Assembly: GCF_988242995.1 (NCBI RefSeq)
Contig: NZ_OZ547043.1
Reading direction: 5' to 3' (one strand)
DNA length: 64,000 bases
Position numbers and translations under genes: made by a program. The notes under the pieces were generated by a model, which had not been told where the DNA came from, did no database searches, and was given only the letters and a program-made list of their open reading frames with translations. Shown here piece by piece: positions 17,296 to 18,050 of this stretch (position 1 is the first letter of the stretch; every line of letters begins with the position of its first letter).

Positions 17296-18050
17296 TTGAT
17301 GATGTGACCCTATTCTCTTCAGGTATGCTACCGCCCCTGGCTTAACAGCTACCAATACACTGGAGGTAATACTTGTTTGTAACTGGATAAAATTTACTCA
17401 GACGGTTTGACCTTTTTAATAGCCGCAAACAATTTCAGCAGAAATTATTTCCGCAGGGATAAATAGATCTATTTCCGTCTCGTTTCTTCTAATCCATTCT
17501 TCAGGCATGAATGTATTCGGTCTTCTGGTAATTTCAGAAAACTGGCCGTTTTAGAATGTAGAGTTAATTTCCCAGGAAATTATTTTTTGTTATTACTGTT
17601 AACTACTTGATTATAATACCCCCATGTATTTTATGCGTAACAATACCTGCAATCTGTTTCAAACCAGAACGCACGCGATTGATCACCAATAAATTGTTCA
17701 CTGAGAAACTATTTCCCTATTTAAAATTCACTCGTGTACTTCTTATTTATATCTACAGCCCCCTCTTTACAGCCATATTTGTGATTTATATCACATTTAA
17801 ATGGTGTTATTTAAGCCGCATCAATAATCCCGAAGGTAATTATTTTCGTCGATTAAAATATACATCTTGATTATTTTGTGTATTTATTTTAACCAGTATT
17901 ACAACCAACACCATCCCTCAGTAGATATACCTGAGCAGACATTTCTTAAAATCGACGAATAGTTTCACTGGAAATTATTATGCTTATTTGAAATTCCCTT
18001 TCTGATTATCTCCAGGAATTTTACTAATTTCCAAGCTACACAAAATACAG
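17296..18050 (-). promoter_or_regulatory. Region 3 promoter and long untranslated leader of kpsMT
   Basis: About 0.75 kb AT-rich non-coding DNA upstream of kpsM; region 3 promoters of group 2 loci are reported roughly 0.7 kb upstream of kpsM. Boundary approximate. Confidence 0.4.
17328..17335 (-). promoter_or_regulatory. ops (operon polarity suppressor) core GGCGGTAG, RfaH recruitment site in the region 3 leader
   Basis: Reverse complement of 17328-17335 is GGCGGTAG, 32 bp upstream of the kpsM ATG, as expected for RfaH-dependent region 3 transcripts. Confidence 0.6.

Follow-up and report, generated by a model that had tools for sequence, protein, structure and literature searches.

A complete JUMPstart/ops element upstream of kpsM and the start codon of kpsM in an Escherichia coli kps capsule locus

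A complete JUMPstart/ops element, that of region 3 of the kps capsule locus, lies directly upstream of kpsM in the stretch of DNA analysed here (64,000 nucleotides, hereafter the window), and its identity, strand, position and conservation were established together with the start codon of kpsM. The JUMPstart/ops in the leader of the E. coli kpsMT genes is a well-known site where the anti-termination factor RfaH, a recognised virulence regulator, boards RNA polymerase. The feature is an ordinary and previously described one, and the main value of the work is that of an annotation check, by which the kpsM start was fixed at 17295. We hold with high confidence the account as a whole, according to which RfaH would load onto RNA polymerase at the JUMPstart/ops of the kpsMT leader and transcription would read through from PR3, the region 3 promoter, into region 2. 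Dependence on RfaH is expected from this element onward for the capsule export and synthesis genes of the strain.

Position and identity of the element

The ops core 8-mer GGCGGTAG was read from the window sequence at 17335-17328 on the minus strand, i.e. the kpsM-sense, non-template strand, where it matches exactly and is directly followed on its 3' side by CATACC (17327-17322), the minus-strand context of the element being ...CAGTGTATTGGTAGCTGTTAAGCCAGGGGCGGTAGCATACCTGAAGAGAATAGGGTCACATCATCAAATGGCAAGA.... The distance from the 8-mer to the kpsM ATG (17295-17293) is exactly 32 nt (17327-17296), and the 12-nt ops GGCGGTAGCATA (17335-17324, minus strand), with T11 (17325) at the expected pause position, is joined to the same codon by a linker of 28 nt (17323-17296). 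The element, kpsM and kpsT are carried by one strand, and the element is located within the 5' leader, 28-32 nt before the ATG. In the review literature (PMC8960920, citing Stevens et al. 1997), ops is placed 28 bp upstream of kpsM and mediates RfaH read-through into region 2. When the sequence was read again, the coordinates given in the earlier note for the 8-mer, CATACC, the ATG, the 32-nt spacing and the longest-ORF start at 17355 all proved correct.

Comparison of the whole window with all 4227 Rfam families returned a full-length match to the JUMPstart family RF01707 at 17362-17324 on the minus strand (model positions 1-38 of 38, 53.6 bits, E 1.9e-9; gathering score 35 bits), corresponding to a complete element of 39 nt, CAGTGTATTGGTAGCTGTTAAGCCAGGGGCGGTAGCATA. 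The stem positions of the model are preserved, whereas the window differs from it by one extra loop base and in the last model positions, which read AUA instead of GUG. The earlier identification of an ops/JUMPstart element was borne out by this full-length match, as well as by the alignment with CFT073, whose 39-mer is identical base for base. The interval proposed for it, 17296-17360, placed the element correctly but left out two bases, as the 39-nt element starts at 17362.

Taken alone, the 8-mer is no more frequent than expected by chance, as 2 copies of GGCGGTAG were counted in the 64-kb window against 1.42 expected, and at least two occurred in 48 of 100 shuffles; its significance rests therefore on the covariance-model match and on conservation. 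This lack of enrichment, together with the location of the second copy within kpsS, is what would favour a fortuitous 8-mer devoid of function. Such a reading was ruled out by the RF01707 match and by the cross-genus conservation, and its probability is negligible, since the 8-mer is embedded in a complete JUMPstart (E 1.9e-9) and was kept at the equivalent site in 32 of 38 loci from other genera, against 4 background copies in the 352 kb scanned.

The second exact GGCGGTAG is located at 8861-8868 on the minus strand, antisense within kpsS and on the strand of PR3-driven transcription beyond region 2. It reads GGCGGTAGCGAG, with neither T11 nor the 5' half of JUMPstart, and its presence in four other kpsS alleles presumably reflects conservation of coding sequence. 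This copy probably belongs with the numerous intragenic ops-like sites to which RfaH does not bind (PMC9765446).

Conservation in E. coli and in other Enterobacterales

The segment comprising the leader and kpsM is present in 1729 of 5426 complete E. coli genomes, and nine E. coli loci, picked to span 81-99% leader identity, were aligned. The JUMPstart is invariant among these loci save for positions 17337 (G/A) and 17326 (A/G), even where the leader is only 81% identical. The former base closes the stem of the JUMPstart hairpin as U.G or U-A, and the latter corresponds to ops position 10, a non-consensus 'n' position occupied by A in the window.

The JUMPstart/ops of kps region 3 was described in the K5 system in 1997 (Stevens, Clarke and Roberts), as summarised in a review (PMC8960920). 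The window resembles the K5 locus in its placement between yghD (gspM-like) and kpsM, in the -741 offset of PR3, in the position of ops before kpsM and in the shared leader, which shows 95-99% identity in most genomes. K5-type alleles differ at 17337 (A) and at ops position 10 (G), resulting in the 12-mer GGCGGTAGCGTA, and the two region 2 segments are unrelated, with kfiABCD in K5 and a Bcs3-like set in the window. The likeness to CFT073 (K2) concerns the identical 39-nt JUMPstart, the KpsM protein (98% identical) and the spacing, the 40 nt that lead from the first ops base to the ATG corresponding to the lower bound of the published 40-67 nt (PMC9765446). CFT073 differs from the window by a 116-nt leader insertion and by another region 2.

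A scan of one genome per species in other Enterobacterales genera yielded a set of 38 kpsM loci, in which Escherichia, Pantoea, Mixta, Rahnella, Ewingella, Atlantibacter, Phytobacter, Chimaeribacter, Kluyvera, Citrobacter, Yersinia, Franconibacter, Superficieibacter, Pseudocitrobacter and others are represented. In 32 of the 38 loci the sense strand contains an exact GGCGGTAG that precedes the kpsM ATG by 24-40 nt, and three more carry one-mismatch ops cores at the equivalent site; the other copies of the 8-mer amounted to only 4 in 176 kb, both strands being scanned. The RF01707 gathering score was reached directly upstream of kpsM in 29 loci. The linker between ops and the ATG is maintained in length (24-40 nt from the 8-mer) and not conserved in sequence. 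These data allow a modest generalisation, namely that JUMPstart and kpsM are paired at a spacing of 24-40 nt across many Enterobacterales genera.

Two loci of this survey deserve separate mention. A 2.4-kb contig (L019; QFQM01000458.1, 1-2426), assigned to a bin named 'MAG: Flavobacterium psychrophilum', contains a kpsM of Enterobacterales type (77% identical) that is preceded by a JUMPstart at 31 nt, and is very likely mis-binned. The locus of Pseudocitrobacter vendiensis (L046) contains two more copies of GGCGGTAG, about 80 nt apart (172-262, minus strand), on the opposite strand and about 1.75 kb upstream of kpsM, beside a naRNA4 match; this extra pair may be part of a divergent RfaH-controlled operon.

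Identity and translation start of KpsM

The kpsM gene (16519-17295, minus strand) encodes an ABC-2 type capsule export permease of 258 aa, whose 98% identity to CFT073 KpsM extends over 258/258 residues. The best NCBIfam match of the protein was NF050053 (E 2.7e-55), with a score of 188.1 bits, below the curated cut-off of 300, so that the identity of KpsM rests on the likeness to the CFT073 protein and on gene context. The latter consists of the adjoining kpsT (15851-16522, minus strand), a 223-aa ABC transporter ATPase whose ATG overlaps the kpsM stop (ATGA), and of the flanking yghD. The RefSeq label 'ABC transporter permease' is explained by the equivalog score falling below the cut-off, and NF050053 evidently does not cover the E. 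coli archetype KpsM.

The longest open reading frame, of 278 aa, opens further upstream at a TTG (17353-17355, minus strand) with which the 5' arm of the JUMPstart hairpin begins, and would read across the element. If KpsM started at this TTG, the element would be coding and its conservation would reflect an N-terminal extension of 20 codons; the frame is indeed open from 17355 and remains uninterrupted by indels in the nine E. coli loci. Against this stands the comparison across genera, where the ATG start is conserved in all 38 kpsM genes, each aligning to the query from residue 1, and in 29 of the 38 loci the ATG is preceded, at a distance of no more than 20 codons, by an in-frame stop, which makes an extension through ops impossible there. 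No Shine-Dalgarno sequence was read before the TTG, the KpsM family profile starts near residue 9 of the 258-aa form, and the TTG start is used by none of the annotated genomes examined, all of which begin at the ATG; RefSeq kpsM measures 777 nt in all nine E. coli records (the eight surveyed loci and CFT073). The variable sites of the extension within E. coli, 3 non-synonymous and 2 synonymous, also lean against a coding role, but five sites are too few to decide, and it was the cross-genus in-frame stops, not these counts, that settled the question. A start at 17355 is thus extremely improbable. On the strength of these sequence comparisons, the shorter KpsM favoured by the earlier note is upheld: the protein is 258 aa long and starts at 17295, and the 278-aa frame, which opens within a regulatory element, is a longest-ORF artefact.

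The JUMPstart hairpin and the ops pause site

Of the ops/JUMPstart features tested, the window shows all but the TG dinucleotide at ops positions 11-12 and a hairpin with unequivocal support. The hairpin is drawn in the RF01707 structure line as a 5-bp stem and occupies 17355-17337 on the minus strand, with TTGGT as 5' arm (17355-17351), a 9-nt loop and GCCAG as 3' arm (17341-17337). It ends 12 nt before U11, a geometry like that of 'class I' hairpin-stabilised pauses.

The upstream half of JUMPstart might accordingly be a nascent-RNA hairpin, e.g. a pause-stabilising or processing signal, acting beside the DNA-level ops. Rfam does model JUMPstart as an RNA with this stem, 94% of the stem cells are paired across 32 distinct sequences, and the 17337 A/G polymorphism preserves pairing. 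A compensatory G-C to A-U change occurs in the stem of the P. vendiensis locus, and the fixed distance between hairpin and U11 is free of indels in 32 of 33 sequences, with L037 as the exception. However, that compensatory case is the one double-sided change among the 33 sequences, and 182 of 500 shuffles matched this count, so that covariation barely exceeds the control. The stem is weak (-2.1 kcal/mol in isolation) and missing from the minimum free energy structure of the 83-nt context, which folds worse than its shuffles (z +1.53); folding gives therefore no support to an RNA structure. Strong sequence conservation without covariation would be just as compatible with recognition at the level of DNA or protein. 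Overall, we regard an RNA-level role of the hairpin as possible though unlikely.

Comparison of the window ops with the K-12 consensus GGCGGTAGnnTG (PMC5995543) showed identity at positions 1-9, at T11 and in the C3:G8 pair, position 10 being A in the window. The difference concerns position 12, which is A instead of G, and the window 12-mer GGCGGTAGCATA thus lacks the TG at positions 11-12 that is shared by the validated K-12 RfaH targets (PMC5995543). Position T11 is that of the pause, and a G12C substitution abolishes the U11 pause in vitro without preventing recruitment (Zuber et al., PMC5995543). For RfaH recruitment, G4, G5, A7 and G8 are essential (PMC5995543), and these four bases as well as T11 are all present in the window. 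An A at position 12 was found in all nine E. coli kps loci and in the three Escherichia genomes checked, whereas G12 occurs in 24 of the 32 cross-genus kpsM-linked ops with an exact core.

Judged by the sequence, A12 would remove one determinant of the consensus pause, and it counts against the standard account. Since the identical CFT073 element works in vivo and still loads RfaH (PMC9765446), A12 is best seen as a tolerated natural variant and TG as not strictly defining for ops; the Escherichia kps allele departs from the TG rule at positions 11-12. One could further imagine that in a natural A12 ops, which lacks the +1 G, the nascent-RNA hairpin holds the polymerase at ops and offsets the weak pause, with the 24-40 nt spacing serving RfaH-assisted ribosome loading, a proposal that we consider quite doubtful.

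A possible association between a non-G12 ops and a stronger or obligatory hairpin was also considered and dropped, because the numbers are small and the hairpin energies of the two groups overlap fully. The hairpin is kept in the window and in 8/8 loci of the cross-genus set that lack G12; three loci with an exact ops core fall short of RF01707, and all three have G12.

The leader, the predicted PR3 promoter and the proposed mechanism

In K5, PR3 is placed 741 bp upstream of kpsM (PMC8960920, citing Xue et al. 2009). When the entire intergenic region was aligned with K5, CFT073 and 042, no net indel was seen between the window and the K5 strain from the -741 point to the ATG, so that this point maps to 18036 in the window. 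The upstream part of the AT-rich 5' leader, from the predicted PR3 start point to the JUMPstart, would then span 17363-18036 on the minus strand. A TATTTT block at 18042-18047 (minus strand), 6-7 nt upstream of the -741 point and invariant among the window, K5, CFT073 and 042, is a candidate -10 hexamer of PR3. The two-hexamer promoter scan of 9500-18400 did not pick up PR3, which fits the reported lack of a -35, and it returned no promoter-like site on the minus strand between the element and the ATG.

The 116-nt insertion in the PR3 leader is located at about 17585/17586; it is present in CFT073 and in a subset of genomes, is absent from the window, K5 and 042, and is bounded by similar AAATAATTTC(C/T)TG.GAAATTA sequences. 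In the genomes that carry it (cf. L047, 29294-30466), the match to the leader and kpsM breaks into two segments, of about 1276 bp.

The start point at PR3, the loading of RfaH and read-through into region 2 are proposed here on the basis of published work on identical or near-identical sequences. Transcription would start at PR3, about 741 nt before kpsM, and cross a long AT-rich, H-NS-prone leader. With RNA polymerase at the ops 12-mer (17335-17324), the exposed non-template GGCGGTAG would form a small hairpin recognised by RfaH, which would replace NusG and remain on the polymerase. By suppressing pausing, Rho-dependent termination and H-NS-StpA silencing, RfaH would allow one transcript to extend through kpsM, kpsT and the three region 2 genes, whose GC content is 26-34%. 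In CFT073, RfaH ChIP-seq enrichment sets in at the kps ops and continues along the transcription unit, and deletion of rfaH lowers RNAP occupancy 5.4 kb downstream (travelling ratios) to 0.1-0.34 of the wild-type value, in a manner that depends on H-NS-StpA filaments (PMC9765446).

RfaH also recruits 30S subunits to leaders devoid of Shine-Dalgarno elements (PMC5995543). The only Shine-Dalgarno-like stretch before the kpsM ATG is TAGGG (17312-17308), 12 nt from the start codon. As ops is only 28-32 nt before a start codon with such a poor Shine-Dalgarno, RfaH probably helps ribosome loading on kpsM. An analogy of logic alone can be drawn with Bacteroides UpxY (PMC11685472), likewise a specialised NusG paralogue acting on a capsule-operon 5' leader for long-range elongation; the factor and the leader signals are different.

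Region 2 genes and proposed transcriptional read-through

Region 2 (9673-15765, minus strand) was delimited from its open reading frames and family matches, and consists of three co-oriented genes. These encode a cytidylyltransferase-like protein of 231 aa (15070-15765), a Bcs3-like protein of 1112 aa (11494-14832) and a protein of 530 aa combining WcbI and hexapeptide acetyltransferase (9673-11265), all on the minus strand. Their arrangement on the same strand downstream of kpsT, as proposed earlier, was confirmed by the ORF layout; kpsC and kpsS converge from the other side, and yghD and the gsp genes lie upstream of kpsM. This particular region 2 was found in 13 of 5426 complete E. coli genomes, and we found no published study of it.

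The 1112-aa protein showed no Pfam or NCBIfam family match, and the solved structure with which it aligns, over residues 451-1022, is that of the Haemophilus influenzae type b capsule polymerase Bcs3 (E 4e-18). One might speculate from these matches that the three genes together direct an O-acetylated capsule of the ribose-ribitol-phosphate type (Hib-like).

By analogy with the K5 and K2 capsule loci, RfaH dependence of region 2 is a reasonable inference. The earlier note had also appealed to a near absence of promoter-like spacers, an argument that carries no weight, as 41 promoter-like sites were counted against 48.8 +/- 6.8 in shuffles and two of them fall in a 237-nt gap. The promoter and terminator scan, which covered 9500-18400, neither supports nor refutes read-through; it revealed no terminator-like site in the intergenic gaps of region 2 and no intrinsic terminator after kpsT.

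The two sites in question (15015-14986 and 14873-14846, each with 9/12 matches) lie on the coding strand in the gap (15069-14833) before the 1112-aa gene, and on their account part of region 2 expression could be RfaH-independent. They are also what would speak for region 2 being expressed mainly from promoters of its own, with ops serving kpsMT only. Promoter-like matches are no commoner here than in shuffles of this AT-rich DNA, kpsT is followed by no intrinsic terminator, and read-through from PR3 is required or dominant in K5 and K2 (PMC8960920; PMC9765446). We therefore judge region 2 expression mainly from its own promoters to be highly unlikely, and favour read-through from PR3.

Apparent recombination and other features of the window

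The window is colinear with E. coli 042. From kpsF through kpsM (819-17307) the identity with 042 is about 99.9%, with about 13 differences, whereas from 17308 rightward (leader, gsp, sslE, glc) the divergence is about 2.5%. This pattern suggests that lineages have exchanged the capsule block, the right-hand crossover being located within kpsMT or at its 5' end. With G at 17337 and A at 17326, the JUMPstart allele lies on the diverged side, that of the flanking backbone, and matches E400634 and CFT073, not 042.

At the left end of the window, which does not align to 042, a 139-aa ORF with a transposase HTH_Tnp_1 domain was found at 335-754 (minus strand), and the two strains therefore have different junctions of the kps island. 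Another difference from 042 is a 1.4-kb insertion (45683-47110), which interrupts yghO, is flanked by duplicated target sequences of about 13 bp and encodes a 448-aa IS4-family transposase (Nterm_IS4 and DDE_Tnp_1). Finally, a full-length match to the sRNA family C0719 (RF00117, 296.8 bits) is located at 37060-37281 on the plus strand, between glcA and glcB.
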